This document shows, in pieces, positions 13,505 to 52,045 of a stretch of 64,000 bases of DNA. The notes beneath the pieces are model-generated. The model saw only the letters and a list, made by a program, of their open reading frames with translations, searched no databases and had not been told where the DNA came from. Each line of letters starts with the position of its first letter. Within the stretch, counting starts at the first letter, position 1. Origin of the DNA: an uncultured Desulfosarcina sp. (GTDB lineage Bacteria > Desulfobacterota > Desulfobacteria > Desulfobacterales > Desulfosarcinaceae); assembly GCA_963674945.2 (NCBI GenBank), contig CAXXWQ010000004.1, positions 768,001 through 832,000 of the forward strand. Direction: 5' to 3'. The position numbers were made by a program, and so were the translations under genes.

Positions 13505-14061
13505 AACTATCCATCTACGGAGATAAATTGGCCAATGCCCTAGCCGAAAACAGGCTGCTCAAGTTCTGTTTATTGCTGACCCTGGGTATTACGATCGTCA
13601 ATTCAATCGTGTCCTACCATGCGATGAACAGCCAGAAGGTGGTGATCCTGCCACCGATGGTGGATCATAAAATCGAGATCCGGGGCAACGATGCAGACGA
13701 TGAATATCTCAAACTGATGGGTCGGTATTCGATCAAGCTGCTTTTGGATTATACCCCCAGCAATGCAGAGCAGAACTTTTCCGATTTTCTTAAACTGGCG
13801 TCTCCTGGCGTTTTCAGTTCCATGCGAAGCGACCTCAACAAAATCATCGAGGAGGTGATTCGTCTGAGGGTCAGTTCATCTTTCCAGATTCATTCGATCA
13901 AAAAGCTGGGGACCACGAACCGGATCGAACTGATCGGCCTTCGAAGCAAGTATGCCGATGACGTAAGCATCGAAAAGGCCATCGAAAACCACATCATCGA
14001 ATATGAAATCGATGACGGCACCTTCAGGATCACGGGAGTATCCCAAAAAAATGATACGTAA
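13501..14061 (+). CDS. traE: F-type T4SS protein TraE
   Basis: N-terminal TM, VVILPP, EYLKLMG..LLLDYTPSN; synteny. Confidence 0.85.
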   Translation: MKLSIYGDKLANALAENRLLKFCLLLTLGITIVNSIVSYHAMNSQKVVILPPMVDHKIEIRGNDADDEYLKLMGRYSIKLLLDYTPSNAEQNFSDFLKLASPGVFSSMRSDLNKIIEEVIRLRVSSSFQIHSIKKLGTTNRIELIGLRSKYADDVSIEKAIENHIIEYEIDDGTFRITGVSQKNDT

Positions 14062-14830: not shown

Positions 14831-14839
14831 TTGAAGCCC

Positions 14840-16114: not shown

Positions 16115-16115
16115 A

Positions 16116-16574
16116 ATGAAAACGATATGGTTGTTTTTCCTCCTGTCCGTCGTGGTTTTGCTTACCGGCTGCGAAACCATGAACCCCTATGATGAATCCA
16201 GCGATTGCCCGGACCCGTTCAACGGCGATTGCGTTTCCATGGATACAGCCTACCGGCGATCCAAAGCGAATCCGAAAAACATGGAATCCATGAACATCGA
16301 TCCGAATCATGATTCACCTTTAATAAAGGATCGCCCCCAATCGAGCGATACCGGTGAGATTTTTAAACCACGCCAGGATCGCGTTTACAAAGAAGAGCTA
16401 TATCAGGAAATCGCCGGCCTGGTGAAAAGCCCCATCACGCCGGTCCGGATTCCTGCTAAACAAATGCGGGTTCTTATTTTGGGATACGACCGGGAAGATC
16501 GCTTCTACGGCCATCGCTACATCTTTTTCGAAAGCGATAAACCCCGCTGGATTTTGGATATCATCGAAGAGTAA
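16116..16574 (+). CDS. traV: TraV lipoprotein
   Basis: LTGC lipobox, CPDPFNGDCVS, PVRIPAKQMRVLI. Confidence 0.85.
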   Translation: MKTIWLFFLLSVVVLLTGCETMNPYDESSDCPDPFNGDCVSMDTAYRRSKANPKNMESMNIDPNHDSPLIKDRPQSSDTGEIFKPRQDRVYKEELYQEIAGLVKSPITPVRIPAKQMRVLILGYDREDRFYGHRYIFFESDKPRWILDIIEE

Positions 16575-16578
16575 GGCT

Positions 16579-19074: not shown

Positions 19075-19618
19075 CATCGGTGTGTTGGTGATTTGTCTGG
19101 TCGTCATTGAAATGGATGTCCAGGCCAAGAACCTGGGCCGTGTGGGGCCAGTATATCCGATCGTTGAGAAAGCGGTAACGCCTGATCAAGACAGTTCGGA
19201 TCATCGCCCTCAACCGCCCTACCCCATGTCGCTGCCGGTCGCACTGGCCGAAACACAGGAGTTTCTGGATTTGACCTATACAGTTCCCTGGGACATCGCC
19301 GATGCGAAAGGAAATATCGTCTACCCGAAAGGGTATCGCTACAATCCTTTGGCACATCGCCGTTTTCGCACCATGATCGTCATCGATGGAAGTGAGCCGA
19401 ACCAGATCGACTGGGCACTGCATCTGGAACAGACCTCCGACCCCATGACGCGTGTGGTGATCACCCAGGGCAACCCAAAAGACGTATCCCAACGATTCAA
19501 CCGGCGCGTTTACCGATTGCATCCAAAGCTGGCTCAGCGCTTTGGGATAAAGAACGTACCCACCATCGTCCAACAGAAAGGAGAGATCCTTGCGGTTACA
19601 TCGAAGCCTGTCCATTAG
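19034..19618 (+). CDS. traW: TraW-like protein
   Basis: NLGRVGPVYPIVE, DAKGNIVYPKGYRYNPL, IVIDG, LAQRFGIKNVPTIV. Confidence 0.8.
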   Translation: MKRFKSSPIKGVFSIGVLVICLVVIEMDVQAKNLGRVGPVYPIVEKAVTPDQDSSDHRPQPPYPMSLPVALAETQEFLDLTYTVPWDIADAKGNIVYPKGYRYNPLAHRRFRTMIVIDGSEPNQIDWALHLEQTSDPMTRVVITQGNPKDVSQRFNRRVYRLHPKLAQRFGIKNVPTIVQQKGEILAVTSKPVH

Positions 19619-20519
19619 TTGGATACTGATTCTTCTGCTGCCCACGCTTGTGGGTGCGACATGAATCGAACAGGAATGGAACCCGGGTGGGTTCGACTTC
19701 GAGTTTGAAGTGCTTAGCGCCTGTGTTTGTTGTTCCAGTCCGTATGATTGCAGATATGGTGCGCTCATCGCATTTTGGGAACCTCACCGAATTATCGAGA
19801 CGGTCAAAGACCCGTATTGTTCGCCGACCGGATCGCAATCCTTTCTGCTGAGCGAAGGGGCAGGATCTTTGGATCAATTGTTTTTCAGCGGGACTCATTC
19901 CGACCATTCCAATACGGAAGACGCAACTGTTTTTGCGCAAGTACATTATCTTACTCACCCTATGCTGAATGTAATGATCACGGTCTTTGACGGTATCTGC
20001 CATGAGTTTTCGGACAGTAGAATGGAATACATCACGGAGATCGACGGTGAGTGGCAAGAAATCTACAGCTCCATGTGGTGGCCGGAAGCATCGCTGTTTG
20101 CCACGTATCCCATGGTCGAAGCCTGCATGGCCGATGCCGCTACGGCACAGTTCGGAACACCCATGGATGCATTGTACTGGTGCCTGGGCGCATGGGGGAC
20201 CCTTTTTAACATGAATGGCCATTTCAACCAGGATGAGTACACCACGGGAAATGCTGGCCTTGCTGCCCGGGCCGTCGCCCATATGGGTCGCCTGGGCTTG
20301 TTGATGGATGCCGCCTCCGTACCTTGTTACGCCGTACCGATGCCCATCTGGATAAAAAGCTATTTCAGGCTGCAGCCACTAAGGCCGAGTGAACGGCCTT
20401 TTAAGATTCCTATCGGCATGGATCCGCTATTTTGGGCCGGAGGCCTGAACCGTGTGGAATTGGGCGGCGACAACTTTGCGTGGCTTCTGTGGAGGCTTCG
20501 TATTTGCTGTGCCAGTTGA
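19590..20519 (+). CDS. traU: TraU-family protein with an in-frame TGA at codon 25 (selenocysteine or nonsense mutation)
   Basis: IAFWEP..IETVKDPYC, FAQVHY, YITEIDGEW, LYWCLGAWG, PMPIWIKS, WR.RICCA; the frame extends upstream through TGA 19662-19664 to a TTG start with AAAGGAG RBS and a signal peptide. Confidence 0.85.
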
Positions 20520-20554
20520 TTACAAATCTTTAGGGAAGTATTTCGTGAACTGAC

Positions 20555-21235
20555 ATGAAATCAATCCATTTGGCAATTTCACTATCGTTGATCGCGGGAT
20601 TGGCCCTTTTTGCCAATGCGCAGGATATTGAGAAGATCGTCGAAGGGATCGAAAAAAGCCCCTATTACGAAGCTGCCAAACAGTGCGTTAAACGAAATGA
20701 AAAGGAGATTACTCGAAACGTACAACTAAAGATTGATGAGAAGAAAGATGCTGTAGCTGCTATCAATGAACAATTAAGAGGGACATTCGTAGAATCAAAA
20801 ACGTCTGGCCCCGAGGATCCCAATGCCTGTTTTGACGCGCAATCCCGTATCTATATTTTTGTATCCCAGTCGATCCCCCTTTCAGTTCTCAAATCCTTTG
20901 CCGCTGACATCGACACCCTTGGAAGCGATAATATACGGCTTGTGTTCAAAGCATTCCCGAAGGACTTCTTGCATCGGTTTTTACAAAAAGACCACGGCTG
21001 CACGAATGAAAATTGTGTGGTCAAGGCAAAGGTTATCGTCGGCGAGAACCTTTTTAAACGGTTTGTGGTGGACAAGGTGCCGGCCGTGATCTTTGATCCC
21101 GACCCTACCAGCTCACATGAGGGCTGGCTGCTCGTTTATGGGGCAACATCCTTACATCAGGCATTGACGCTGTTTCATCGAGAGTCCGGCCGGCAAGAAC
21201 TGAAACTGGCTGCAAACCGGGCAGGTCAAAATTGA
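20555..21235 (+). CDS. trbC: TrbC-type F-pilus assembly protein
   Basis: Signal peptide, IYIFVSQSIP, LFKRFVVDKVPAVI, VYGATSL. Confidence 0.8.
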   Translation: MKSIHLAISLSLIAGLALFANAQDIEKIVEGIEKSPYYEAAKQCVKRNEKEITRNVQLKIDEKKDAVAAINEQLRGTFVESKTSGPEDPNACFDAQSRIYIFVSQSIPLSVLKSFAADIDTLGSDNIRLVFKAFPKDFLHRFLQKDHGCTNENCVVKAKVIVGENLFKRFVVDKVPAVIFDPDPTSSHEGWLLVYGATSLHQALTLFHRESGRQELKLAANRAGQN

Positions 21236-21696
21236 AATGGCCGAAACCAAACAAAAGATTATTCGGTTACATCATGCTACTTTGCATTTCGCTTGTCATC
21301 GGCATGATCATACCGACGCGTCTGACCATAACCAAAACCGATAGCGTTAAATATCATCTGTTCTGGGAGATCAATCGAAAGGCACTTGAAAAAGGAGATT
21401 ACGTGCGACTCCCCCTGTTCGAACCGGACGTGGGATGCGAACCTTGCAGCATCGTCAAGCGTGTCGGATGTCTTCCGGGAGATCGGTTGGTCAACGAGGA
21501 TATAGAGTACTTCTGCAATGATAATTATCTGGGACAGTGCAAAACAGGAAAAAATATCGTGCCATTTCGATTCTCCGGAACGGTGCCCCCAGGAATGGTT
21601 TTTCTGATAGGTGACAGGGATAACAGCTATGACTCTCGATATTTCGGGTTTAAATCGATTGCCGATATCGAAACGGTGCTGTTTCCTCTTTTTTAG
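21232..21696 (+). CDS. S26-family conjugative signal peptidase (TrhF-like)
   Basis: TDSV serine, IVKRVGCLPGD lysine, GD..NSYDSRYFG. Confidence 0.88.
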   Translation: MKWPKPNKRLFGYIMLLCISLVIGMIIPTRLTITKTDSVKYHLFWEINRKALEKGDYVRLPLFEPDVGCEPCSIVKRVGCLPGDRLVNEDIEYFCNDNYLGQCKTGKNIVPFRFSGTVPPGMVFLIGDRDNSYDSRYFGFKSIADIETVLFPLF

Positions 21697-22492
21697 TCTT
21701 CTTCTCATGGCACCTTGCGTATGGGCTGGAGAGACTTTCTGGGAGGATCGCCAAAGGGGATACTTTTGGTACGAAGACCCGCAAGAGCAGCCGACCCAAG
21801 AGCAAGAAGAAACGATCGAGGATAAACCAGTGAATAGCAACCCCCTACAAGATGAAAAGCCGGATCAATACACCTATGATGAACTTTTCGATTTGCATCC
21901 GGACCGATTTCAAGTGGTGATCGACGAAAGGCTCAAGCATGCTGTGCACCGTCCAACCGAAGTAAATGTGTTGCGGTTTTTAGAGGCTACCGACGTGGCC
22001 AAAAAGAAAAGTCGCCTTGTGGCCAATGTCGCCGGCTATGTGGCCATGCAAAACCCGCGGTTGACCGGCGAGTCCCGGTATCCCTATTCGCAGCCCGGTC
22101 GCAGCGCATACATTGAAAAGCGTAATAGCGAAGTCCAAACGACCCTGGAGGAATTCAAGGATCGATATGCCATCATCGCCTTCAACCAGATGGGGTGCGG
22201 CTATTGCCAGGCACAGGAAGAGATTCTGGCCTACTTCGAACATTTGAATGGCTGGACCGTGCGGCGGATCGACATCGCCGAAAACCCGGAACTGGCAACC
22301 AAATTTCGAGTCGAGACAACACCCACGTTGCTTCTGGTATCTCGGAGCACCCAAAAATCGCAGATCGTCTCTTCGGGTGTGATTTCGTTGGATCAGCTCA
22401 CCAAGCGCGTTTACCAGTTGATCCGTATGATGGAAGACCGTGCCGATCCGAAACAGTTCTATCAAATGGATTATCAAGAAGCCGCAAATTAA
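21659..22492 (+). CDS. traF: TraF thioredoxin-like pilus assembly protein
   Basis: RGYFWYEDP, AVHRPTEVNV, CGYC, VETTPTLLLV, GVISLDQL; start approximate. Confidence 0.88.
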   Translation: MPISKRCCFLFFSLLLMAPCVWAGETFWEDRQRGYFWYEDPQEQPTQEQEETIEDKPVNSNPLQDEKPDQYTYDELFDLHPDRFQVVIDERLKHAVHRPTEVNVLRFLEATDVAKKKSRLVANVAGYVAMQNPRLTGESRYPYSQPGRSAYIEKRNSEVQTTLEEFKDRYAIIAFNQMGCGYCQAQEEILAYFEHLNGWTVRRIDIAENPELATKFRVETTPTLLLVSRSTQKSQIVSSGVISLDQLTKRVYQLIRMMEDRADPKQFYQMDYQEAAN

Positions 22493-22505
22493 CGAGGTGA
22501 TATCC

Positions 22506-23921
22506 ATGAAAAAACGTTTGCTGATAAGCATGATCCTTGTCCTGGCGATGTCCGGAATTGCTTTCGCCGATGATTGGATCGACAACTGGATACAACAGGC
22601 GACCCATAGCGGCCCCAACATGTTTGAAAGCCAGAAACGGGGATATGCCTCGGCCGGGAGCCTGTCCCTTCGCTTTCGCAATGAAAATGATTATCTGGTG
22701 AGTGTTGCACCGCCTCGCTTTCGCGCCGGATGCGGTGGCATCGATATGTTTATGGGAAGCTTTGCCTACCTGGACGCCGAATATCTGATGGAAAAACTTG
22801 AACGTATCGCGGAAGGCGGGGTGGCGACCTTTGTCTACGATATCGCCATGTCGGTACTCTCCGAGCCAATCCAAAAATCGATGAAGTCATTGGAGGCAAT
22901 GGTGGATCGGCTCAATCAACTGCAGATCGATGACTGCCGGGCCGCCAAGGGTGTTGCGACCTATCTCAAAAGTACCTCCTCGGGAGAGGATCAATCCGAA
23001 GCCCTTCAGAAATTTCTCATCGAGAGCGGGATCCATGAATTTTACCAGGGCTCTCAGGATGAGTACAATCATGCCAACACTCAGCAGGTCATGCAGGCGA
23101 CCGGGGTTTCGGTAAACGATATGACCGCCGGCTGCCCCGAAGAGATGCGACGGGTATTTTTCAGAAACGGTTCGCTGTTGGCCAACGTCGCAATGGAAAA
23201 CAATATTCCTGAATCCCAGACCCGGATCATGTCTGCCTTTGTAGGTGACGTGCTGATCGACAACGGCAATTATTTCATGGTCGGTCCTTGCTACAACGAC
23301 CCCGGGGATGTGGATGCGCTGATCTTTGGTGACCTCATCACCCGAAATACCACCAACGAGTGCAGGCAATTGGATCACATCCGAATCAACGGCGTGAACT
23401 ATGACTCTCTCTACGATTGGTCCTATGCCATGATCGGTGAGATTATCACGGCCATCGGCACGAAAGCGGATCTATCCGCTACGGCGCAGTCCTTTATCGA
23501 AAGCATGCCCTCTCCGTTGTATATGCTGATCCTAAACGACATCATGGCCGTTGGGGATTTGAACAATGCAGAAGAGATCTCCGGCCGTCTTTCATACGTG
23601 TGTGCCCTTTCCTATGCCTACCAGATGAGCAAGTCGCTTTTGTTCAACACCTACAAACTCTATCACGATGCCATGCGCATCGCGCACAATCAGTTGGGGC
23701 CGAATGCCGGAGGAAGATGTGTCCAGCAACTCGTCGAACAGCCGGCAAGCTACATCGAAACCATACTGGGCCGATTGGACAGCATGTACGGCTATCTCGA
23801 AGAAGCCTATGGCGCTTCATTGCAGCGAATCACCAACGGCCTGGAGCAGGAAAGATTGATCCAGGCCAGAAGTGATCGTCTGGATCGTGTCTCTTTCGAC
23901 AAATCGGGGATACCCAAATGA
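22506..23921 (+). CDS. traH: TraH pilus assembly protein
   Basis: QKRGYASAGS, PPRFRAGCGGIDMFMGSF. Confidence 0.92.
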   Translation: MKKRLLISMILVLAMSGIAFADDWIDNWIQQATHSGPNMFESQKRGYASAGSLSLRFRNENDYLVSVAPPRFRAGCGGIDMFMGSFAYLDAEYLMEKLERIAEGGVATFVYDIAMSVLSEPIQKSMKSLEAMVDRLNQLQIDDCRAAKGVATYLKSTSSGEDQSEALQKFLIESGIHEFYQGSQDEYNHANTQQVMQATGVSVNDMTAGCPEEMRRVFFRNGSLLANVAMENNIPESQTRIMSAFVGDVLIDNGNYFMVGPCYNDPGDVDALIFGDLITRNTTNECRQLDHIRINGVNYDSLYDWSYAMIGEIITAIGTKADLSATAQSFIESMPSPLYMLILNDIMAVGDLNNAEEISGRLSYVCALSYAYQMSKSLLFNTYKLYHDAMRIAHNQLGPNAGGRCVQQLVEQPASYIETILGRLDSMYGYLEEAYGASLQRITNGLEQERLIQARSDRLDRVSFDKSGIPK

Positions 23922-26329
23922 AACGACTTTTCAAAATCCTTCCCCTGTTGATTGTACTCATGCCGGGCGCAGCCTTTGCTCAGGTTCCGGATACATTCAG
24001 GGAGTATGTCACCTATGGCGGTTTCCATTGCATCTATAACGCCTTGAGTCGCATCGCGCTGAGTTTTTCGGACAACTCCTATGAGGGGCTTTTCGTCGCA
24101 TTCATGGTGGTGGCCATCACCTTTTGGCTGGGTTGGGGCGCCATCGGCTATTTTAGAAATGGCAGTGCACTTGGTTTCATTTACATGGCGTTTACTATTT
24201 TATCCGGGTGTATCGTCTATTTCGCTTTAATCCGCCCCACAACATCCATGGTGGTGTATGACGAGCTTTTGAACGTTCATCAGGAGGTGGCGGACGTTCC
24301 CGAGGGTGTGGTTCTTCTGGCCGGCATGCAAAACAGTTTTACCCGCACCGTAACCGACATCATCTGGACATCTGCTAATCCGGAAGTGTACGACTATCGG
24401 CAAAACGCCAACGGGGATGTCTACAATATCGTTCGCCAGGTCTATAACGGAGAGATCGATATCTCTACCGAAAATGGAAACGGACGCTATATCAATGCCT
24501 CCTTGCGGCGCTTTTGCGAAGATTGCGTTACCTTCGAAATCCTCCGGCCCCAAAGTGATCTGAATGTCAACATGTTCGCCACCAGTTCGGATTTGACCGA
24601 ACTATTGGAAGCAGCGCAGAACCCGTCGGTATTCACGGTCTATTTCAGTGATGCCAATCGCACCGGCATAACGATGAGCTGTTCCGAAGCTTATGATCGA
24701 ATCGTCAGTGATCTGAACACCATCACCGACGTTTCCGATGAGAACATGAATTTCTGGCGAACCAAGTGCGCCGAGGCCGGGTACCATAACAGCACGGAAA
24801 TGGTTGGCCAGGACCAGATCGAACGCTGCATGGAAAGAACCACACAATTTTTATCCTACATCACCCAGGGTAACGTGGCTCCTTCGGAAGTCACCCGCAA
24901 CCTTCTGATCTCCCGTGAACTTTGGAACGCGGCTCTCAATGCCGATATCGCCACTCTCGGAGACTATAGAATCGGCACGGCCCTGTCGGGTGAAGCCATT
25001 TCTACGGATCGATGGCTGCCATTGATCAAAGAGGTCATGACCGCAATTTATTTAGGGCTGGTACCCTTTCTGGTCATTTTATTGCCGACACCGCTTTTGG
25101 ATCGAGTCGGTGGGCTGATCATCGGTTTTTTCTGTTTTCTGACGGCCTGGGAGGTCTGCGATGCCCTGATCCACAGTTTTGCCATGGATCATACCATCAA
25201 CTTCTTCGATGAAATTCGTCGCAACGGGCTCAGTTTTAAATCCATTGCCATGATGGAAAGCCACAGTCACCGATCCATGTTAATGTTCGGAAAGACCCGT
25301 GCTGCCACAATGATCCTGGCCGGCGTAATCTCTGGGGTAATCGCCAAGTTCGGTGGCGCGGCCCTGGCCCACTTTGCCAATACCATGAACTTCGGACATT
25401 TGGGTATCGAGGCGGCAACCCGAATCAATGACCCCTCTCAGCAGGCCAATGCCTTGGAGTCCTATGTCAAAACACCCGTTCCTGTTGAGACGCATCGCAA
25501 TCAGGGCTATCATGAGATGGTTCGCCTCGCCAATCTTGCATATGCCGGTAACGTATCGGGAAGTGACAATTTATTTACCGACAGTGACGGATCGTTCCCA
25601 ACCGCAGCTACCCATAAAGGCAGGGAAATGACCAATCGCACGCTCGATGGTTCGGCACGTTACTCTGCCGTCAACAAACAAGCCGGAATCAAGGACATGA
25701 ACGATCAGGACGCCCGCGAACTGATGCAGGAAAGCCAGGTGGCCAGCGGCCTGTCATCTGCGTCACGAGCCGAAAGTTTGGGTATGGAAGAGCATTACGA
25801 CCGGACAAGTACGGAAATGATCAGAAACGATTCTGCCTTGAAAGCATTTGGAAAAGATGGTGAACTAAGTGAAAGACAGGCTCAGGCGGGCACCATTCAG
25901 GGAACGCAGCAGCGCGGAACCTTGGATGCAAACCGCGCCATCGGCAATCAAGGGATATACCAGACGGCTCATACCGACACTGCCCGTCACAGCGCTCATT
26001 CCATCCTGGCAAACATTGTGGCAACGGATATTCTGCAAAATGGAGCCGTCAGCCAAAAAAACCGTGATCTTCTCAATCGATTGAATGAGGATCAGGATGT
26101 AAAGGGCTATCTTCAGACTGCCACACGTATGGATGTTTCTCCAAATGAAAATGAAGCCGATGCCCTGGCTTCCTATTTTGGTTCTCACGGTCATAGTTTT
26201 ACTTCTGGTATGCTACAAGGCTCACAGGTGAGTTTTAAAATGGCCTATGATCCGAAAAGCGGAGACATCATTCCATCTAACATCGACGTTTCGACCGGTG
26301 CTGGTTTCCACAGTTTTGGTCAATACTTT

Positions 26330-28785
26330 CAGGAAACTTGATTTCCTAATTGTTGCATATGGCAAGCAAAACATAATGTAAGTGGTTGAAAAACAGAAAG
26401 ATAGGAGTCTGAATCCAGCAGGCCGGTAAGGTATTGCAACCGGAAAATGAACATGGCACCTTTAACCTTATTATCTTGGCGGATAAATGAAAGGAAAAGG
26501 ATGCCATGCCTCAACAGATACTACCACTTATTCCTCGCGGTGCAAGACAAATCAACGGGCTTGTCAGTGTATTTCGTGACGATACGACCTGGACCTATTT
26601 TCTATCGACCGTTCCGATTTATTCTCACAGACAAGGCGATCAACGAATGTTTCGGATGATAACAGCCCAACTGGTTGAATCCGGAGCTTGCCGCCAGATC
26701 GATATCCAAAACACATTCGGCGTATCCAAGAGCAATGTCATCCGATCCGTGAACAAACTCAGGTCCGGCGGCGCCGAGGCATTTTTCGTTCAGCGGCGGG
26801 GACGACGCGGCGGCAAGGTTTTCAAACCTGAGGTGCTTGAACAAGCCCAACGTTTACTGGATCAAGGGTGCTCGAAAAAAGATGCCGCCCTGGAACTTGG
26901 CATTAAATACGATACGTTTCGCAAAGCTATAGATGATGGTCGGTTAATCGAATCAAGGATTGGTGAACCGTGTCTAACCAAATCAGATCGGGACATGGTC
27001 GACATGGCTGCTGCCGATGGTATGGGGACGGCTTGCAACCGAGTCGGGGAACGCATATTGGCATCATTGGGCAAAATGGTTGGTGCGCCGGTTCGTTTTG
27101 ACAGATGCCTGGACGTTCCCAAAGCAGGCGTTCTTTGTGCGATACCGTCATTGGTGGCAAACGGGTTGTTTACCGGCGCAAAACAGTTCCTCGGCCAAGT
27201 CAAAGGCTATTACACGATCTTTCATGTCTTGTTGCTGCTTTCGTTTATGGCCTTATGCAGGATCAAGACGACAGAAAAAATACGAGGCCATGCTCCGGGA
27301 GAATTTGGTAAGTTATTGGGCTTGGATCGTGCACCGGAGGTTCGCTGTTTGCGTTACAAGATGGATGCGTTGAGCGCAGACCACGGCGCGGAAAAGTGGG
27401 CCGCATACCTCGGTAAATACTGGATGGAACAGGCGCCCGAATCGGTTGGCGCGCTTTATGTTGACGGGCATGTACGTGTTTATCATGGAAAATTGACCCG
27501 ACTACCGCGCCGCTACGTGTCCCGGGAACGATTGTGCATGAGGGGCATTACCGACTATTGGGTTAACGATGCGATTGGCCGACCTTTTTTTGTCGTCGAA
27601 AAGCAGATCGATCCTGGATTATTGGCGGTTTTAAGAGACGATATCGTTCCCCGGTTGTTGCAAGACGTTCCGAATCAACCCGGTTTGCAGCAACTACAAG
27701 AGAACCCATGTTTATGCCGGTTCGTTCTTGTTTTCGACAGGGAAGGATATAGTCCCGCATTCTTCAAGGAAATGTGGGATCGCCATCGAATCGGCTGCAT
27801 GACGTATCATAAGCATCCTGGTGAATCATGGCCGGAGCATTGGTTCACCGAGTATGAAGTTGCGATGCCAAACAAAGAGGTGGTGAAGATGCGGCTTTGC
27901 GAAATGGGTAGTTTGGTGGGATCTGGTAAGGGTGCAACATGGATGCGACAAGTGCGAAAACTGACCGATTCCGGACACCAGACCAGCGTAATCAGCACCG
28001 CTTTCGATTTGCCGCATACTCAATTGGCAGCACGCATGTTCAGCCGGTGGTGTCAGGAAAACTTTTTCAACTATATGATGCAACATTTTGATATCGATGT
28101 GCTTTTAGATTATGGTGTCGTTGAATTTCCTGATACCGAACGGGTAATCAACCCCGTTTGGCGGCAATTGAATCAATCCCGTAATTCGTTGCAGAACAAG
28201 CTACGATATCGTCGTGCCTGTTTTGCCGAGATGACCATTCACCCTGAAAATGAAGACAAACCGGTAAAGTTTAAGAAGTGGATAGAGAAAAAGGCCGAGC
28301 TGTTAGAAGAAATCGAAAAGATGGAGTATCAACTCAGCGAGTTGAAAGAAAAACGAAAACAGACAAGTAAACACATCACGTGGGGAGAACTTGAAGCAAA
28401 AGATAAATTTTTACGTTTACAACCGGGCAGAAAACGCCTGATGGACACGGTTCGTATGATTGCATATCGTGCAGAGACGGCAATGGTTGGGTTGCTCACG
28501 GGTCCGACGGTAAACTCGTCGGATGCACGGAGTCTTCTCCAGACACTGTTCCAGACCGAAGGCGATGTACTGCCCGATATTGAAAATCAGCAATTGAATA
28601 TACGATTGCACGGCGCTTCGTTCCCAGCGGCCAATCGGGCTCTTTGCCAACTGTTTGCGCATCTGAACAGTGCGCAGGTAAAATACCCCGGTACCGAGCT
28701 GCAAATGATATTCGAACTAAATGGCTGCAGCACCTCAAATCATGCCGGAGGTGTCACATAGTTTTCCCGGAGATGCAGTGTTCTG
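26330..28785 (+). mobile_element. 2456-bp insertion sequence, family unassigned
   Basis: ACTTT target duplication (26325-26329, 28786-28790); imperfect terminal IR CAGGAAACTTGATTTCC vs CAGAACACTGCATCTCC. Confidence 0.88.
26506..28761 (+). CDS. Large DDE transposase with N-terminal HTH domains
   Basis: YVDGH, FDREG, RWCQENFF putative D-D-E; fills the element. Confidence 0.85.
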   Translation: MPQQILPLIPRGARQINGLVSVFRDDTTWTYFLSTVPIYSHRQGDQRMFRMITAQLVESGACRQIDIQNTFGVSKSNVIRSVNKLRSGGAEAFFVQRRGRRGGKVFKPEVLEQAQRLLDQGCSKKDAALELGIKYDTFRKAIDDGRLIESRIGEPCLTKSDRDMVDMAAADGMGTACNRVGERILASLGKMVGAPVRFDRCLDVPKAGVLCAIPSLVANGLFTGAKQFLGQVKGYYTIFHVLLLLSFMALCRIKTTEKIRGHAPGEFGKLLGLDRAPEVRCLRYKMDALSADHGAEKWAAYLGKYWMEQAPESVGALYVDGHVRVYHGKLTRLPRRYVSRERLCMRGITDYWVNDAIGRPFFVVEKQIDPGLLAVLRDDIVPRLLQDVPNQPGLQQLQENPCLCRFVLVFDREGYSPAFFKEMWDRHRIGCMTYHKHPGESWPEHWFTEYEVAMPNKEVVKMRLCEMGSLVGSGKGATWMRQVRKLTDSGHQTSVISTAFDLPHTQLAARMFSRWCQENFFNYMMQHFDIDVLLDYGVVEFPDTERVINPVWRQLNQSRNSLQNKLRYRRACFAEMTIHPENEDKPVKFKKWIEKKAELLEEIEKMEYQLSELKEKRKQTSKHITWGELEAKDKFLRLQPGRKRLMDTVRMIAYRAETAMVGLLTGPTVNSSDARSLLQTLFQTEGDVLPDIENQQLNIRLHGASFPAANRALCQLFAHLNSAQVKYPGTELQMIFELNGCSTSNHAGGVT

Positions 28786-32494: not shown

Positions 32495-33226
32495 GTGGTG
32501 AAGGATGAAACAAATAACGCGATTCCCATTGGGACCAACAGCGATTTTGGAACGCGCACCTATTTCAAAAATATCGTCGATGCCATCTCGCAGATTCAAC
32601 AATTCGCCGTCATGGAAAGATCGGATTACGAGATTCCAGAGGATTTTCTCACCCTTCGGGGATCATTGAACTTTTTCAGTATCGGTTTTGGTAACGGCTT
32701 TATCGAAGGAATGGTGTTTACATTGCTTCTGGCCATCATCATGCCACTTACCCACAGTGAATATCTCATGGCGATGGTCTCCGCCAGTTTTCCTTTGGCC
32801 CGATCCCGCGTCTTCTTGTGGATATTGAACCTGTTGCCCGTCATCATAGCTGTGGTGCTCTGCTCCTATCTGAGTCGATACCGGATCGGCAAGATTGCCA
32901 GGCGTGCCGTCGATGCACTGTTGGTTGGACGCATGTTCAGCCTGATCATCAAGGCAATCATCATATTCGTTTTTTTGATCCTCCTTTATAACTACAACGA
33001 AGTCATTGCCTCCAGCCTGGGAAATACGCTGGCAAAAATTAACTATGGCTTTGGCCATGGTGTATTCTTGACAATCGCGAATATGAAAGAACACCTGTTG
33101 ACCACCGCTTTTCGAATCCTGGCAATTTTCGCAGGAGCGATACTGACGCCATTTTTCACGATCTGGCTGGTTTCCCTTTACCGGGCATATCAACGGAAAA
33201 AGGCCGAACTTTTTTGGATGAGATGA
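32495..33226 (+). CDS. Multi-pass membrane protein coupled to the coupling protein gene
   Basis: About four TM segments; stop overlaps the traD start (ATGA). Confidence 0.75.
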   Translation: MVKDETNNAIPIGTNSDFGTRTYFKNIVDAISQIQQFAVMERSDYEIPEDFLTLRGSLNFFSIGFGNGFIEGMVFTLLLAIIMPLTHSEYLMAMVSASFPLARSRVFLWILNLLPVIIAVVLCSYLSRYRIGKIARRAVDALLVGRMFSLIIKAIIIFVFLILLYNYNEVIASSLGNTLAKINYGFGHGVFLTIANMKEHLLTTAFRILAIFAGAILTPFFTIWLVSLYRAYQRKKAELFWMR

Positions 33227-34557
33227 TGTTCTGGTCACCGAAACGTACCACCTTGGTTGGACGGGGTGTTCCTATCAACAACCCAAAAGGAACCATCCGC
33301 AAGATCGAAATTCCCGACAAGGACAGAATCGGTCACATCGGATGCTTCGGAACCACCCGTATCGGCAAATCCAAGCTAATCGAACACATGGTCGCCCAGG
33401 ACATTGCCAAAGGCTATAGTGTGGTAATCGTAGATCCCAAAGGGGATCTGGAGCTTTTTTCCAAAATCGTTCAAATTGCATCCGATTGTGATAGAGCTGA
33501 CGAACTGTGTCTGATCAATCCCATCTATCCTGAATTCTCGGCGACTATCAATCCCCTTGCCTACTATTTCAGTCCGGAAGAAATCGTCAATCATGTGGTC
33601 GCCGGCGTTCAGGCCAAGGATGCCTATTTTCATAATGTGGCCTATGAAACCACGCTCGTGATCGTTCTGAGTCTGTTGGCATTTAAAGAGAAAGAGAAAC
33701 CTGATCTATCCATCAATTTCGCGGAAATTGGACGACGATGCGGGGCTGAAGAGATCGAGAATTTGATGGCTGCACTAACCAGAGGCCAGGATTCCTCCAC
33801 GCAAGAAATCATTCACATTGCCAATAAAATCCTTCAGGCCAAGGAAGAATTTTTCGGCAAGGTGACCTCATCCCTTCGCACCGTCCTGACGGCCCTATCC
33901 ATTGGCAATATGGGCAAGATCATCGGCAGAGCCCGATCCAATCGCTTCGTTCAGAGACTTGAAAATGGAAAACGTGTCATTCTTGTGGTTCAGACCGGCA
34001 GTATGCTTTCCGGCAAGGTCAGCGACATGATAGCTCGGATTCTGATCTCGATGATCCAAAGCTTCATCGGTCGGCGTTTTGCGTCGGGTCAAAAGATCGA
34101 TCCACCACTTGCCATCTACATCGATGAATTTTCCAATGCATGCTACATGGGCATCGAGGATCTGTTCAATAAGGCCGGCGGCGCCGGTGCCATGGTGAGT
34201 GTATTTACCCAATCGCTGGCCGATATCAGTGCAGCCATCGGTGAACAGATGGCCCGAAAAATCCTGGACAATCTAAACACCAAAATCTTTATGCGTGTCA
34301 ACGATCCCCTGACGGCCAAATATGTAAGCGAATCCTCGGGTACGCGAAAGAAATACGACCCATTTCTTCAATTAGGCGGTGGTATCACCATGAGATGTGC
34401 ACAAGAAGCGGCCGTTCTTCCCGAGGATGTTCTCAGTTTAAGTGAACGGATCTTTTTTCTTTTCGGTATGAAAGGAAGCTACAAGGGAAAGACCGAGCTG
34501 GTAAAACCGGCAAGGATAAAAGTGGAGTACCCTGACATTATCTCCAAGGCGGTTTAA
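33223..34557 (+). CDS. traD: Type IV coupling protein (TraD/VirD4 family) without N-terminal TM segments
   Basis: GTTRIGKS Walker A, IVDPKGD, IYIDEF Walker B, LFNKAGGAG, TQSLAD, NLNTKIFMRVND. Confidence 0.9.
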   Translation: MMFWSPKRTTLVGRGVPINNPKGTIRKIEIPDKDRIGHIGCFGTTRIGKSKLIEHMVAQDIAKGYSVVIVDPKGDLELFSKIVQIASDCDRADELCLINPIYPEFSATINPLAYYFSPEEIVNHVVAGVQAKDAYFHNVAYETTLVIVLSLLAFKEKEKPDLSINFAEIGRRCGAEEIENLMAALTRGQDSSTQEIIHIANKILQAKEEFFGKVTSSLRTVLTALSIGNMGKIIGRARSNRFVQRLENGKRVILVVQTGSMLSGKVSDMIARILISMIQSFIGRRFASGQKIDPPLAIYIDEFSNACYMGIEDLFNKAGGAGAMVSVFTQSLADISAAIGEQMARKILDNLNTKIFMRVNDPLTAKYVSESSGTRKKYDPFLQLGGGITMRCAQEAAVLPEDVLSLSERIFFLFGMKGSYKGKTELVKPARIKVEYPDIISKAV

Positions 34558-46546: not shown

Positions 46547-46907
46547 ATGTACAATTATCTGCTCAATGAATTCCCCATTCATTGTTCCCTCCGCCACTGA
46601 GCGGACTTCGGGATGACAGGTTATCACCTGAACAATCCTTTTTTCAGATCCAATCATTTCTTCAATGGATCGGTGTTTATCGATCAGCCGCCACTCTCAA
46701 AACGGTTTTAGCCAAACCTTGAGAAGAGGCATTTCTGCAGCGGCCAAGCCAAACAGCAGAATTGTCAATCGGCAGCAGTGTCACATCCACACACACAAAT
46801 AATTAAAATATTCCATTAAAACATTCATTAACAAAGGGACCAAGGCACTTTTGCGCAATTTGGCGCCACAAGTGTTTTGTTTCCCACCAAAAGGAAAGGA
46901 GCATTTC

Positions 46908-47612
46908 ATGAACAAGTCAATCATCATCGGAAGACTGGGAAAAGAGGCCAAGTTTTTTAAAAATGGCGAGCATACCGCTTGCCGATTTCCATTGGCGGTG
47001 AAGGAGACATGGAAAAACAAAAACAATGAACTGCAAGAGCGGACCGAGTGGGTGAATGTAGCTGCCATAGGCAGTGATGCCGATCAAATGAAAGGCGTCT
47101 CCAAGGGTGCGCTCGTGTTTGTTCAGGGAACCACCAACACAGGTACCTACACAAAGGAAGATGAAACCCATTACTATTTCGAGATCCGGGCCAGAAGGCT
47201 TCGGATTCTATCGGAAAAAGGTGAGCAAACATTCAAAGATCTGGACCAGAATGAAGTCGCTTTGGTCGGTCGTCTCGGACAAAATCCGCTGACACCCAAG
47301 GAAGGGATCACTCATTTCTCCATCGCATGCAATGATTATCGCAACGGTCAAGAAACAACCCAATGGATCAGCATTGCTACATTCAACGGTTTGTCCGACA
47401 GCGCGGCCAAAATTTTAAGCAAGGGCCGGATGGTCTACGTGGAAGGGAAAATACGGACGAGAAAATACGACAAGGATGGGCAAACTCGTTACGCCACCGG
47501 TATTATCGCAAACAGGTGGCGAGCACTGGATGCCAATCCAAGAAAGCAAGAGGCGAAAGAATATCATGATTCCGCACCCCATGATTATGCGGATAGCGAT
47601 ATTCCGTTTTAA
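46908..47612 (+). CDS. ssb: Single-stranded DNA-binding protein with two OB folds
   Basis: MNKSIIIGRLG...ERTEWVNV and NEVALVGRLGQNP...VYVEGKIRTRKY; DSDIPF tail; AAGGAG RBS. Confidence 0.9.
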   Translation: MNKSIIIGRLGKEAKFFKNGEHTACRFPLAVKETWKNKNNELQERTEWVNVAAIGSDADQMKGVSKGALVFVQGTTNTGTYTKEDETHYYFEIRARRLRILSEKGEQTFKDLDQNEVALVGRLGQNPLTPKEGITHFSIACNDYRNGQETTQWISIATFNGLSDSAAKILSKGRMVYVEGKIRTRKYDKDGQTRYATGIIANRWRALDANPRKQEAKEYHDSAPHDYADSDIPF

Positions 47613-47681
47613 ACCAAGCCCCTGGACTCTAAGTTTAATGACCTCTTAGATCCAGGGGTTTAACCGACTACGAGGATATCG

Positions 47682-48461
47682 ATGGAAAAAATATTTCAAA
47701 AGCTCGAGAGGTATTTTGGCCCATGGAAAATCGGTGTCTTGAATCCGGACAGAGGACTATGGTCGCTTTCACCATCTATGAACAAAATTGGATACCTGAA
47801 GGCAATGAACGCCAGCGGCTATCACATCTTCATGAAACCTTTGAATGAACGGTACTACCTGCTTTTAGACGATATCCCGGAGACAAAGCTGAAACACCAA
47901 AAAGAGCCAAAAGGATTCAAACCCGGACGACTGGTGGTTGAAACCAGCCCCGGGAATTTCCAGGTATGGATCAAAGCCGGACGGAGTATGAGCAATCCGG
48001 AGAAAAGATACTGGATCCGATATTTCGGTGCAGATCGAGCCTGTGATCCCAATTTGCGTTGGGGCCGCTGTCCGGGATTCCGGAATTGTAAGGAAAAATA
48101 TCGAGAAAAAGGACGATTTCCCCTTGCTCGGCTCATCTGGGTGGATTGGCAAAATGTTGCTCGTATTCCGAGTGTGTCTTTACCGGAGGAATCAGCCGAC
48201 CGTAAAATCCCAGATGGAAAAGAAATACGGCGCACTCATACCAGCGAAGCCATTTTTCGCACAGACTATGAACGAGGGGATGAGTCGGCAACCGATTTTG
48301 CCTATACGCTGGCATTGCTACGGAGAGGCACTGACCCGAAAGTGATCGCCGATAGACTATTGGAAGAAAGAAAAGATTGGACCCACCACAATGGGCCAAG
48401 GCGCCAGGCCGATTACCTTGATCGGACGATCAGGCGCGCCGCCGAAATTATCAATCAATAG
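47682..48461 (+). CDS. RepB'-type (AEP superfamily) DNA primase
   Basis: LLLDDI, VVETSPGNFQVW, GRCPGFRNCK; C-terminal DESATDF helical domain, as in RSF1010 RepB'. Confidence 0.85.
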   Translation: MEKIFQKLERYFGPWKIGVLNPDRGLWSLSPSMNKIGYLKAMNASGYHIFMKPLNERYYLLLDDIPETKLKHQKEPKGFKPGRLVVETSPGNFQVWIKAGRSMSNPEKRYWIRYFGADRACDPNLRWGRCPGFRNCKEKYREKGRFPLARLIWVDWQNVARIPSVSLPEESADRKIPDGKEIRRTHTSEAIFRTDYERGDESATDFAYTLALLRRGTDPKVIADRLLEERKDWTHHNGPRRQADYLDRTIRRAAEIINQ

Positions 48462-48576
48462 AAGATATCAATCCATTTTTTAACAAACCCCGGATCCGGG
48501 GCACCGCAATGGTTCCCCGATATGGTGGGTTTCTCTCTTTGGAGGGACCATTGCGGTTTTATCCAAAGGGAGGCAA

Positions 48577-49380
48577 ATGATGAAATCACAAAACATCCCC
48601 CTCACCAATGATCAGATCGTCAAATTGGCGCCGTCTGCAGGGGCAATATCCCCACATGAAATGGTTTCGAACCGATATAGTTTTGTGCCAACCATCGAGG
48701 CCGTTGATTTGTTGAGATCGGCCGGATGGGAACCCGTTCATGTGAAGCAGTCCGGAACGAGGAAAAAGGACCGCAATGGCTATCAAAAACATATCATCCG
48801 TTTCATGCAGGGCGCCCTGTCAACCGACCAGGAACGCGTCGATCTGGTGATGACTAACTCCCATGACCGAGGCTGCGCCTTTCTGCTTTCCGCATCTATC
48901 TGGCGCAAAATATGCGGCAATGGTCTGATGGTGTCCTCAGAACTGTATAATTTTTCACACAGGCATGTAGGTTTTGAGAGAAATGTTTTCCTGGATTCTG
49001 CCTATCGGATAGCCGAAGGCGCCGGAGATATCGCCGCACAAGTGCAAAATTTAAAGGTAATCGACCTTACCCCCAATGAAAAAGGCGTATTTGCCATGGC
49101 TGCGCACAAATTGGTCTATGACGATGTCGAAAAGGCACCGATCTTGCCAGCACAACTACTGAAGGAGCGTCGCTACGACGACAACGGCAATGACCTGTGG
49201 TCGACATTCAATGTGGTTCAGGAGAACATCATGAAGGGGGGTATATATGGAAGAAAACGAAGTGCAAATGGCCATATTCGTCATGTCAAAACCCGTCCCG
49301 TGAAATCCATCGATCGAGACATCAAACTCAACAAGGCATTGTGGGTCCTGACTGAGGAGATGGCCAAATTAAAATGCTGA
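48577..49380 (+). CDS. DUF932-family protein
   Basis: SNRYSFVPT, NSHD, ICGNGL, RRYDDNGNDLWSTFNVVQEN, LNKALW. Confidence 0.9.
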   Translation: MMKSQNIPLTNDQIVKLAPSAGAISPHEMVSNRYSFVPTIEAVDLLRSAGWEPVHVKQSGTRKKDRNGYQKHIIRFMQGALSTDQERVDLVMTNSHDRGCAFLLSASIWRKICGNGLMVSSELYNFSHRHVGFERNVFLDSAYRIAEGAGDIAAQVQNLKVIDLTPNEKGVFAMAAHKLVYDDVEKAPILPAQLLKERRYDDNGNDLWSTFNVVQENIMKGGIYGRKRSANGHIRHVKTRPVKSIDRDIKLNKALWVLTEEMAKLKC

Positions 49381-49525
49381 AGGAGTAAACAGGTAACGCT
49401 ATACGGTTCTTCAAAGAATGCGTTAAATCAAACAAAAAATCCCCCGAACCGGGGAACCGTAAAGGTTTCCCGATGGGGATGTCCTCCCTTTTCTTGGGAG
49501 CCTTTGCGGCTGACAATAGGGAGGG

Positions 49526-50068
49526 ATGAAAGTGAACAAAAAAGAATATCGTTTTTATGCTTATAAGCTGCATATGGTCAAGGAACAAGAAATCCATTTG
49601 TGCAGCGGCCAAACAATCCACAGCAGTTTTTCAGGTTCCAAATTAATCAAAAAAGTGATCCGCCAACTCGGTCAGACAGATCGAGAAAACTTCGTAGTGC
49701 TGATGCTGAACGCGAAATTTAAACCCATCGGCACGAACCTTGTGTCCATCGGAACTCTTACCCGGAGTATCGTACAGCCCAGGGAGATCATCAAAGCGGC
49801 ATTGAACATGCCCTGCAAGGCCTTGATCCTTGGACACAATCACCCATCGGGAGATCCCTCGCCTTCCATGGAGGACAAGCTGATCACACTCATGGTAATG
49901 GCGTCCGCGCATCTGTTCGATCTGGAGATTCTGGATCACATTATCGTGGACATGGATTCTGATGCCTACCTTTCTTTTGCGGACGAAAAGATCATTGAGG
50001 ATACGAAACACAAAGTGTCTTCCGTATTGGATCAATTTTATAAAATGGAAAGCAGAATACGACTATGA
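49526..50068 (+). CDS. radC: RadC/JAB-domain protein
   Basis: DRENFVVLMLN, GHNHPSGDPSPSMED, LDHIIV. Confidence 0.92.
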   Translation: MKVNKKEYRFYAYKLHMVKEQEIHLCSGQTIHSSFSGSKLIKKVIRQLGQTDRENFVVLMLNAKFKPIGTNLVSIGTLTRSIVQPREIIKAALNMPCKALILGHNHPSGDPSPSMEDKLITLMVMASAHLFDLEILDHIIVDMDSDAYLSFADEKIIEDTKHKVSSVLDQFYKMESRIRL

Positions 50069-50082
50069 AATAAGGTGACATC

Positions 50083-50436
50083 ATGACCGATATTATAAGG
50101 AAGCATTCCCAAAATCCTTATGCACATGTAGTGGAATGGATCGATCGGCATGAAGGAACCGGCTCGGCCAATGGACTGGCGAAACTGATTCTCTCTTTAT
50201 GGTCTGAAGATGCCGCTTTTAGCCTACGTGAATGCATCTCTTCATTCGACGATACACGTTTGGCATGGGCCGAAGAAATGACCTCGCACTTTTTGCGTTA
50301 TCGTTCGGATCGTTTCTTGGATGATGCTGCAAAAAAAGTGGCTTTCAAATGCCCTCATATCATTGAAAAGGGGCTTGCCGGAAGCCATGCCAAATGTGAT
50401 TGGGAACGCGCTAAAATCGTTATAGAGAAAAGCTGA
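50083..50436 (+). CDS. Hypothetical protein
   Basis: 117-aa ORF with AAGGTG RBS, in the operon. Confidence 0.7.
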   Translation: MTDIIRKHSQNPYAHVVEWIDRHEGTGSANGLAKLILSLWSEDAAFSLRECISSFDDTRLAWAEEMTSHFLRYRSDRFLDDAAKKVAFKCPHIIEKGLAGSHAKCDWERAKIVIEKS

Positions 50437-50669
50437 TCAATCAAATGATCCGACCGTCTGTTTTTGAAATAAAAAAAACAGACGGTCGGAAATCATGATT
50501 GATGATGAAATATCTCAATGCCAATAACCATTTGTAATATCATATACAAATTCACGGATTCCCTTATTATTCTCCTTTATTTTGTAAGCCGAAAAAAACA
50601 AATTGTCGACTGATGACTATTTTTTTCGGCACACGAGAAGGGCAATAGGGAAAAAATCGCATTTGCCAA

Positions 50670-50860
50670 TATCCCATTCTTTGTAACCGCTGGTAATTAC
50701 ATCAGCGTCAATAATAAAGCGATTATCCTTACCCTGAACCTGTTTCTCAGGGCGTCGTCTATGGCGATGCGGGGTAAAATCGCATTAACCAATCTTTGTT
50801 ATTAATTCGGTAGCATTTCTCCGTATTAATAGATCGCTATAAGATTACAAAAAAGGGGGT
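50670..50860 (+). ncRNA. Candidate structured RNA/ssDNA element upstream of the recombinase
   Basis: Nested complementary segments forming a multibranch fold (see findings). Confidence 0.45.
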
Positions 50861-51821
50861 GATTGATTTGAGTAACTCAACGAGAACCGATACGTTGGTA
50901 ATGCAAGCGATACGAGTGATACAAAAAAACAAATCAGGATCGGCAAAAACCAGACACAACCATATCAAAGAAGCCAGAAGATTTGTTACGACGATTCGAG
51001 AGTTGGGTTACGGTGTGAAAAGATGGAAGAATGTCACCAACATTCACGTACAGAAGGCGGTCAACAGGTGGAAAGAAGAAGGCCTTCAGACGGCAACGAT
51101 CAAGGAATATTTAGCCGGCGTAAGGACGGTTTGCAGAATGTATGGAAACGACAGAATCAATCCGAACAATGCAACATTTGGCATCGCAAATCGTGTGTTC
51201 GTGGATAATCGAGATAAATCATTGCCCCAGGAAGTATTTGAAAAAGCGGTAACAGAGTTGAAGAAAAGCGATCACAGTGATGATAAAAGAGTGGCTGCCC
51301 AATTGCAATTAGAACGTTATCTTGGTTTGAGGGTGGAGGAGTCGTCAAAATTTAATGCGCATCAGGCATTGATGACAGGTGGAAGAGTGTTCATACAGCA
51401 TGGAACCAAAGGTGGAAGAGAGCGGATAATAAACGACCTCACGGAGAAAGGGAAAGAGGCGATTGAATATGCAAAAAATATATCCGGGATGAACAATCTG
51501 ATACCAAATAACCACAGTGAAAAACAGTGGATTCAAAAATATTATCGGATAACAAGATCCAAGGGAATCTCAAAAAAAGAATGCGGCGCATCGAGTCACG
51601 GATGTCGACATGCTTATGCACAGGAACGTTACGAAGAGATCACGGGATTTAAAGCCCCATGTAAATTTGAATCAAAAACAGAATTTAGACAAAATGCGGC
51701 AACAATAGCCGGAGAAAAATGGAGGAAACTAAACCAGGATGCAAGGCAGATAATAAAGGCCGAGTTGGGTCACGGCCCGGATCGTGACGATGTTGTAAGC
51801 CAATATTTGGGAGCAACATAA
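50859..51821 (+). CDS. Tyrosine recombinase (Integrase_1-like type)
   Basis: GLRVEES, GTKGGRER, HGCRHAYAQERY, ELGH, SQYLG; full catalytic set present. Confidence 0.9.
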   Translation: MIDLSNSTRTDTLVMQAIRVIQKNKSGSAKTRHNHIKEARRFVTTIRELGYGVKRWKNVTNIHVQKAVNRWKEEGLQTATIKEYLAGVRTVCRMYGNDRINPNNATFGIANRVFVDNRDKSLPQEVFEKAVTELKKSDHSDDKRVAAQLQLERYLGLRVEESSKFNAHQALMTGGRVFIQHGTKGGRERIINDLTEKGKEAIEYAKNISGMNNLIPNNHSEKQWIQKYYRITRSKGISKKECGASSHGCRHAYAQERYEEITGFKAPCKFESKTEFRQNAATIAGEKWRKLNQDARQIIKAELGHGPDRDDVVSQYLGAT

Positions 51822-51846: not shown

Positions 51847-51879
51847 AAAGCCCCAGCTTCTATAGCTGGGGCTTTTTTA
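51847..51879 (+). terminator. Rho-independent terminator
   Basis: AAAGCCCCAGCT/AGCTGGGGCTTT stem followed by a T-tract. Confidence 0.85.
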
Positions 51880-52045
51880 TGCAGACTAGTCAGATTAAGA
51901 AAGATGAATAAATAAAAATTACAATTGATTACAGCTATCGACTGGCATGTTGGAGAAATCATCCTGGGTCCAGTTCAGTTCAGGGTACCTCTCAGATTCG
52001 TGTGTAATTTGCCAGGTCCCTCTTCAAAATAATTTAGACGCCTTT

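Follow-up and report, generated by a model that had tools for sequence, protein, structure and literature searches.

In an uncultured relative of Desulfosarcina, the folded segment directly upstream of a gene for a tyrosine-recombinase-type protein probably represents the RNA component of a conjugative transfer module of the SGI1 type. It is located between the likely origin of transfer and the gene for a likely relaxase homologous to MpsA, and we consider it probable that it acts as RNA. Four lines of evidence carry this reading: homology of the protein, the anatomy of the surrounding element, a conserved and strand-biased fold, and two features shared with SGI1 at matching positions. The folded stretch is probably a distant counterpart of sgm-sRNA, and by analogy the module likely works like mobSGI1, that is, as a known kind of system that appears here in a divergent form. 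A previous sequence-only reading of the 64,000 nucleotides analyzed here (the window) had proposed an uncharacterised recombinase plus structured nucleic acid; the combination of oriT, sgm-sRNA and mpsA from SGI1 is already published. Among the three roles then proposed for the fold, that of a recombinase-associated ncRNA is the best supported, with the correction that the protein is MpsA-like and not a site-specific recombinase. The features of the locus are compiled in Table 1.

Table 1. Features of the transfer module and the surrounding element (window coordinates).
Feature	Position	Strand	Remarks
tRNA-Lys, left end (attL) of the ~157-kb ICE	10889..10965	+	
F-type T4SS: TraE, K, B, V, C, U, TrbC, S26 peptidase, TraF, H, G-N	13501..26341	+	Pfam
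TraD-type coupling protein	33214..34557	+	Pfam TraG-D_C, TrwB_AAD_bind
ssb, RepB primase, DUF932, RadC, 117-aa ORF without Pfam family	46851..50436	+	leading-region-type genes directly upstream
Conserved hairpin, CGTCTGTTT / AAACAGACG arms	50450..50489	.	likely counterpart of SGI1 oriT IR3
Second inverted repeat, 11-bp arms, GACTGA word in loop	50588..50630	.	sequence
Pyrimidine tract	50673..50686	+	predicted pairing with 50845-50858 over the ribosome-binding site, probability 0.64-0.97
Hairpin P1	50688..50707	+	two-sided changes in 7/7 pairs
5' arm with two partners	50718..50724	+	50778-50783 (P2, as in the sequence-only reading) or 50832-50838 (P2')
Three-way junction	50729..50777	+	P3 (50729-50734/50772-50777) closes P4 (50739-50751) and P5 (50752-50770)
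Motif CATTAACC	50783..50790	+	family CAYTNAMC; CACTTACC in SGI1
Variable hairpin P6 (50801-50830) and P2' 3' arm (50832-50838)	50801..50838	+	folding, conservation
MpsA/MOB_M-like tyrosine-recombinase-type protein (PF12835 + PF12834), likely relaxase	50868..51821	+	317 aa from TTG 50868
Intrinsic-terminator-like hairpin after the gene	51849..51880	+	mpsB does not follow

The tyrosine-recombinase-type protein is a likely MpsA-like relaxase

The longest possible start of the gene is GTG 50859, and homologues begin at the position of TTG 50868. The catalytic set R-K-H-R-H-Y recognized in the sequence-only reading is indeed retained, as R158, K184, H247, R250, H251/H305 and Y316 are invariant in all 54 aligned homologues. 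SGI1 MpsA and the window protein share 27% identity over 285 aligned columns (E 2e-24), hhalign relates them with a probability of 99.9%, and the published MpsA residues R162, H247, R250, H251 and Y319 (PMC6414798) align with R158, H247, R250, H251 and Y316. The SGI1 record used for these comparisons was found via a published primer; it was absent from the E. coli genomes searched and present among plasmids. In a tree of 40 rows, the separation of 35 family members from five canonical integrases has support of 99/97. MpsA branches as the sister of the clade with the window protein, at 93/87, a value that falls under the mark for strong support and involves branches flagged as long. Judged from these sequence comparisons the protein is likely an MpsA-like relaxase homologue and not a site-specific recombinase. 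MpsA is the presumed relaxase of SGI1, its activity having been deduced from genetics (PMC6414798). A published supplement labels PF12835 'integrase + MPSA_DTR_like' (PMC10484663), and the MOB_M group, to which MpsA belongs, is reported to be overlooked by common tools and annotated as integrases (bioRxiv 10.64898/2026.01.13.699239; PMC8152469, PMC8409611, PMC13635750).

We judge it very improbable that a site-specific recombinase is encoded here, with the segment as its attC-like folded substrate or as a resolution site. The strand-biased fold next to a gene of the tyrosine recombinase fold does resemble integron attC, the catalytic residues are intact, the nearest solved structures are XerC-like proteins and IntI4, both matched weakly, and two broken remnants are present elsewhere in the genome. 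On the other hand, attC sites form a repeated array and fold as a single hairpin, whereas the segment studied here is branched and occurs in a single copy with neither array, flanking repeat nor cassettes. Moreover, the protein is not IntI-like beyond the weak PDB match and groups with MpsA instead of integrases, and the element has another integrase. The attC-like substrate put forward in the sequence-only reading is thus not borne out. Identity with MobI of IncC/SXT was likewise dropped, because MobI has its own Pfam family and none of the plasmid matches listed (best 40 of 230) is so annotated.

In the phylum-wide search a close protein is present in 3 of 401 genomes. A separate PF00589 integrase is found just downstream of the gene in 7 of 23 loci sampled, a neighbour scan for which 77 of 130 ORFs were submitted. 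When MpsB of SGI1, an essential protein there, was used as a tblastn query, the best match in the source genome had an E value of 0.47; the same query finds an Aeromonas copy at 2e-37. The source genome contains two fragments of the relaxase gene, one at C3:1042978-1043130 with 86% amino-acid identity over 51 aa and one at C4:963545-963590 with 91% identity over 46 nt, just past the last tRNA-Lys repeat. Among plasmid records with a match to the homologue 139 of 230 are typed non-mobilizable. Small plasmids with a homologue comprise Acinetobacter pD13-2 (L163), Francisella pF243 (L164) and an Aeromonas plasmid (L162). On pD13-2, itself typed non-mobilizable, the homologue stands in tandem before a coupling-protein gene, while on the Aeromonas plasmid it precedes an mpsB homologue.

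The locus is part of an F-type integrative conjugative element

The locus lies inside an F-type ICE of about 157 kb with an integrase of its own at the far end. This PF00589 integrase (C4:934634-935686) resides beside the first tRNA 3' repeat beyond the window (attR, C4:935771), which is followed by further repeats at C4:947588 and 963120. As stated in the sequence-only reading, the gene is not at an att boundary. A whole-genome search with seven Pfam families did not reveal a canonical relaxase within the ICE: TraI_2, TrwC and Replic_Relax matched on other contigs only and Relaxase, MobA_MobL, Mob_Pre and Rep_trans matched nowhere in this assembly of four contigs, which is 98.7% complete.

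As expected of a MOB_M relaxase, the protein is encoded on an integrative element whose integrase is a different gene and on which no further relaxase was found. The resemblance to MpsA, TcpM and MobK extends to misannotation as integrase and a likely origin upstream of the gene (bioRxiv 10.64898/2026.01.13.699239). In that survey MOB_M relaxases from six species of Pseudomonadota occurred with MPF_G or alone, whereas the MOB_M-like protein described here is associated with MPF_F in Desulfobacterota.

Several further observations concern the element and its surroundings. A copy with 81% identity exists in D. widdelii PP31. Past the ICE, two small islands are bounded by the tRNA-Lys 3' repeats, three in tandem, behind each of which stands a degenerate copy (C4:935771-963369). 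A transposase-like ORF (window 26506-28761) appears to interrupt traG and has a near-identical copy at C4:936689-938944. Folded stretches with z-scores of -2.6 to -3.2 occur at window positions 46400-46850 and 47600-48600, before and among ssb, primase and DUF932. Finally, an int-alpA RNA match (42.8 bits) is present at window 2047-2115 with no obvious integrase alongside.

A likely transfer origin precedes the fold

The conserved hairpin at 50450-50489, overlooked in the sequence-only reading, exists at one place in the source genome. Relative to the gene it is found at -413, as compared with -415 in SGI1, where the hairpin falls within the oriT that has been mapped. It likely corresponds to SGI1 IR3, the identity of which we take from the published text and primers. 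After de-duplication of 129 loci to 88 (27 close and 61 distant), a CGTCW...WGACG hairpin was detected in 21 of the close loci and 25 of the distant ones, as opposed to 0.1 in shuffles. Because this pattern had been derived from the close loci and was then relaxed in view of the SGI1 sequence, the matches in the close group and in SGI1 are not independent, while the other 24 distant matches are. No counterpart of the essential IR1 of SGI1 was identified at this locus. The second inverted repeat is a candidate protein-binding part of oriT; a loose form of GACTGA in either orientation was counted in 18 of 23 loci, a number that stands without a control. Taken as a whole, the sequence features suggest that 50450-50630 is likely the transfer origin of the element. 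Guide-like matching between the RNA and oriT, as an RNA-guided recombinase of the bridge-RNA kind would show, was not apparent when the longest shared word was compared with that for the oriT of others (p=0.91, 12 groups), a measure whose reach excludes split or very short guides.

The segment folds into a conserved, strand-biased structure

Folding of 50660-50870 yields z-scores of -3.75 (plus strand) and -3.97 (minus strand) as RNA and of -4.08 and -4.23 as DNA; none of the 200 shuffles generated in each case matched the fold, for RNA or DNA and on either strand. Since the segment folds as RNA and as DNA on both strands, the window alone is silent on the folding molecule. All words quoted in the sequence-only reading exist where they had been placed, and pair probabilities computed on 50668-50870 agree with most of its pairings: 0.84-0.97 for the outer stem over the ribosome-binding site, 0.98 for CGCTGGT/ATCAGCG, 0.97 for TTACCC/GGGTAA, 0.98 for GCGTCGTC/GGCGATGC and 0.93 for ATTAAT/ATTAAT. 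The pairing GCGATT/AATCGC is also predicted (0.93) but is the weakest helix with respect to covariation (two-sided changes in 2 of 6 pairs). Three proposals had to be abandoned. AATAATAAAG/CTTTGTTATT has a probability of 0.02 and retains 4-7 of 10 pairs in the seven closest relatives; CCCTGA/TCAGGG as drawn (0.01) is poorly kept in the same relatives, the actual hairpin being formed by CCTG 50739-50742 and CAGG 50748-50751 (0.98); and the upstream repeat at 50653, suggested as an alternative partner for the GCGAT arm, has a probability of 0.00 with 2-5 of 6 pairs in relatives.

The GCGAT arm does possess a second partner, at 50832-50838, which the sequence-only reading had missed and which is kept in all eight close loci; in each of these eight both P2 and P2' are preserved. 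The enclosing helix P2' so formed belongs to the conserved core together with the three-way junction. The two conformers are near-isoenergetic, with minimum energies of -46.9 and -46.6 kcal/mol, 0.3 kcal/mol apart, and the ensemble of this particular sequence favours P2 (0.75-0.93) over P2' (0.05-0.24). A promoter scan returned six sites versus 3.8 expected, and none was assigned. No Rfam family reached its gathering threshold at the locus, where the weak hits are chance-level hairpins, nor did any do so in the sequence preceding the gene at 40 homologous loci.

Conservation was assessed with 160 homologous loci. Thirty close ones were chosen because visual inspection allowed the 3' motif, or else a variant of it, to be located; removal of six near-duplicates and addition of the window gave a set of 25, and close loci without recognisable motif (L005, L096, L098, L100, L110 and the half-replaced L087) were left out. 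Core z-scores in this set average -2.9 on the plus and -1.3 on the minus strand, values below -2 are reached in 19 of 25 loci, and in 23 of them the z-score is better on the plus strand, G-U counts being alike on the two strands (88 vs 80). Single-sequence folding places a three-way junction beside the motif in 20 of the 25. The close group shows no enrichment of RNA-type tetraloops (2/51 vs 5/46). Built on 12 sequences, a covariance model matched 22 times across 78 sources, every match being on the plus strand and upstream of a homologue. In the model-fitted alignment of these 22 homologues two-sided changes affect 24 of 31 pairs and the score is 0.499, compared with 0.222 after shuffling and at most 0.148 after sliding, with the caveat that a fitted alignment leans to its own structure and that related sequences are not independent. 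The refined model matched 7 of 101 related genomes, all seven hits being directly upstream of a homologue. RNAalifold, applied to the MAFFT alignment A4, yielded no more than 11 pairs owing to misalignment, and a hand-set structure on A7 took its place. Contigs of three sequencing runs added a single relative, which resembles L001.

That the fold arose by chance in an intergenic region is virtually excluded. Other nearby windows of 200 nt do reach z-scores of -2.5 to -3.2, but covariation, conserved topology and strand-biased z-scores contradict this explanation.

P2' is specific for its cognate partner across 14 groups, with p values of 0.00036 or 0.00016 depending on which of two sets of representatives was used, in a test for which groups were assigned by hand and five loci with a misplaced 5' arm were retained; for P2 the corresponding p value is 0.07 (14 groups). 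A rival explanation, akin to the cis-regulatory RNA switch of the sequence-only reading, is that the fold is a cis-acting mRNA leader only and switches translation of the relaxase by hiding or exposing the ribosome-binding site. The covering stem is predicted in this sequence (0.64-0.97) and exceeds a probability of 0.3 in 15 of 23 loci folded, the two near-isoenergetic conformers would suit a switch, near-cognate start codons are used (TTG here, CTG in L001), and leaders from gammaproteobacteria carry an invariant GTG/CAC complement beside the start codon (34 of 34, without covariation). However, the stem is not cognate-specific (p=0.67) and can form in both conformers, and the matching RNA of SGI1 acts in trans, extra MpsAB providing no bypass (PMC9299015). 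We therefore consider an exclusive role as cis leader unlikely.

Remnants and rearranged versions of the leader were also encountered. On the reverse strand of the source genome (C4:2651600-2650920, L183) a remnant with 77% identity over 163 nt extends up to the GCGAT arm and is followed by some 470 nt of AT-rich DNA and then by RBS-end sequence, with no relaxase gene behind; it scores 14.1 bits (E 0.85) with the covariance model. L087 is the mirror case, its 5' half being replaced by AT-rich DNA. Group II intron pieces are present near the module in three loci (L001:6199-6373, L101:1-209 and L127:3895-4167).

The fold and the sgm-sRNA of SGI1

Transfer of SGI1 requires sgm-sRNA, which is encoded between oriT and mpsA and runs towards mpsA (PMC9299015). 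It acts in trans and its loss is not bypassed by surplus MpsAB; its discoverers propose that it may bind or recruit proteins and that it is possibly the first RNA directly taking part in a conjugative complex (PMC9299015). Removing IR3's right arm causes a 40-fold loss (PMC6414798) and a 34-bp deletion abolishes transfer altogether (PMC9299015). Mapped from the primers of that paper, the 34-bp deletion begins in the middle of the motif; half of CACTTACC is lost, together with a small hairpin and with the 3' arm belonging to the helix that encloses the motif in SGI1. This order, motif, hairpin and 3' arm, is the arrangement of motif, P6 and P2' in the window. The motif CAYTNAMC occurs in the last 170 nt of 17 of 27 close and 38 of 61 distant loci, where shuffles give means of 1.0 and 2.3, as well as in SGI1; upstream controls amount to 3/26 and 3/59 and the reverse strand to 0.

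Likeness to mobSGI1 (oriT, sgm-sRNA, mpsA, mpsB; PMC6414798, PMC9299015) consists in a homologous protein with matching catalytic residues, the order of oriT-like hairpin, structured segment and gene on one strand, and CAYTNAMC in an enclosing helix close to the RNA segment's 3' end. The differences are considerable. SGI1 is an island mobilised by IncC, whereas the module studied here belongs to a self-transmissible-looking ICE; no MpsB was found, and a terminator-like hairpin follows the gene; and no ORFs resembling S021/S022 were seen. The RNA core of about 130-190 nt contains a three-way junction, whereas a single hairpin is predicted directly before the motif in SGI1. Covariance models R1/R2 gave no hit in SGI1, gammaproteobacterial or EFASI loci, so homology of the RNAs is founded on position and two short motifs. 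Among close homologues the hairpin is missing in 6 of 27 and the strict motif in 10 of 27. In view of the missing mpsB and of an RNA that does not pass tests at the level of covariance models, we do not count the module as a full member of the mobSGI1 type.

Alternatively, the fold could form in single-stranded DNA as a part of oriT that is read during transfer by the relaxase or the neighbouring primase. Folding as DNA (see above), the proximity of ssb and the RepB primase, and the position of oriT directly upstream of TR-like relaxases (PMC8152469, PMC8409611, PMC13635750) are in line with this idea, and covariation is poorly suited to separate RNA from ssDNA motifs (PMC5737381). Nevertheless, the SGI1 oriT feature maps to 50450-50489, some 180 nt upstream of the fold, the SGI1 segment adjoining mpsA is dispensable in cis as oriT and needed in trans (PMC9299015, PMC6414798), and distant members exhibit a bias for RNA-type tetraloops. 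We regard a DNA-level role as decidedly unlikely and retain the interpretation as an RNA.

Structured RNAs upstream of other PF12835 genes

On a Klebsiella plasmid (L161:7118-7829) STAXI (RF01728) and EFASI (RF02957) both occur upstream of a PF12835 homologue, EFASI with a score of 85.8 bits, which suggests that the two RNAs are part of such transfer modules. EFASI resembles the fold in its consensus, where an outer stem encloses a hairpin as well as a three-way junction and CUCAACA, a conserved linker (PMC12370729). It differs in that the window-derived covariance model has no EFASI hit and, of all family members in the tree, the Klebsiella protein is the farthest removed. Conversely, the EFASI model (threshold 51.2 bits) had no hit at the locus, its sole hit in the source genome being one of 17.7 bits on another contig.

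In L022, L025, L028 and about 50 more gammaproteobacterial loci a conserved multibranched motif of about 200 nt is situated 230 nt upstream of the homologue. It opens with AGGAGGT, a perfect SD-like sequence that no conserved start codon accompanies, ends in a possible pseudoknot at the start codon and has no Rfam match in the 20 loci scanned. In the gammaproteobacterial leaders a covarying three-way junction (two-sided changes in 11 of 20 pairs) precedes the same motif as in the window, and GNRA/UNCG loops number 28/147 on the plus and 6/147 on the minus strand. We found no description of the motif or of such a module in Desulfobacterota in the literature, of which few subscription journals were covered, nor an account of features common to sgm-sRNA, EFASI and other PF12835 leaders, some of which supplements may show.

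Proposed mechanism and implications

A working model that we consider probable can be put forward along the lines proposed for SGI1. The protein would nick the upstream origin through Y316. A transcript would pass through the origin towards the gene and be processed to an RNA of 130-190 nt, in which the three-way junction and CAYTNAMC, held by P2', would be binding sites for the relaxase or for proteins that partner it. The RNA would, as has been suggested for sgm-sRNA, be needed for assembly of the nicking complex on oriT or for handover to the coupling protein TraD. Uncut transcript might in addition damp translation of the relaxase, as the predicted covering of the ribosome-binding site faintly suggests.

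The locus offers a testable structural model for an RNA of this kind. Relatives of SGI1 are too alike to reveal which features of the RNA matter; the divergent homologues draw attention to the motif with its enclosing helix, to the junction and, at oriT, to the conserved hairpin, and the one published SGI1 deletion that is lethal for transfer falls on elements singled out in this way. In sulfate reducers, an F-type ICE that seemingly lacks a relaxase likely employs a misannotated 'integrase' in this role, and does so without MpsB. More tentatively, and with more doubt than confidence on our part, PF12835/MpsA-type relaxases may be ribonucleoproteins, each in need of its own structured RNA, such that sgm-sRNA, EFASI and the motifs of gammaproteobacteria and Desulfobacterota would form a single class of RNA, its hallmarks being an enclosing helix, a three-way junction and CAYTNAMC in exposed position. 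If this were true, relaxosomes of a widespread conjugative class would generally contain RNA as a structural component.
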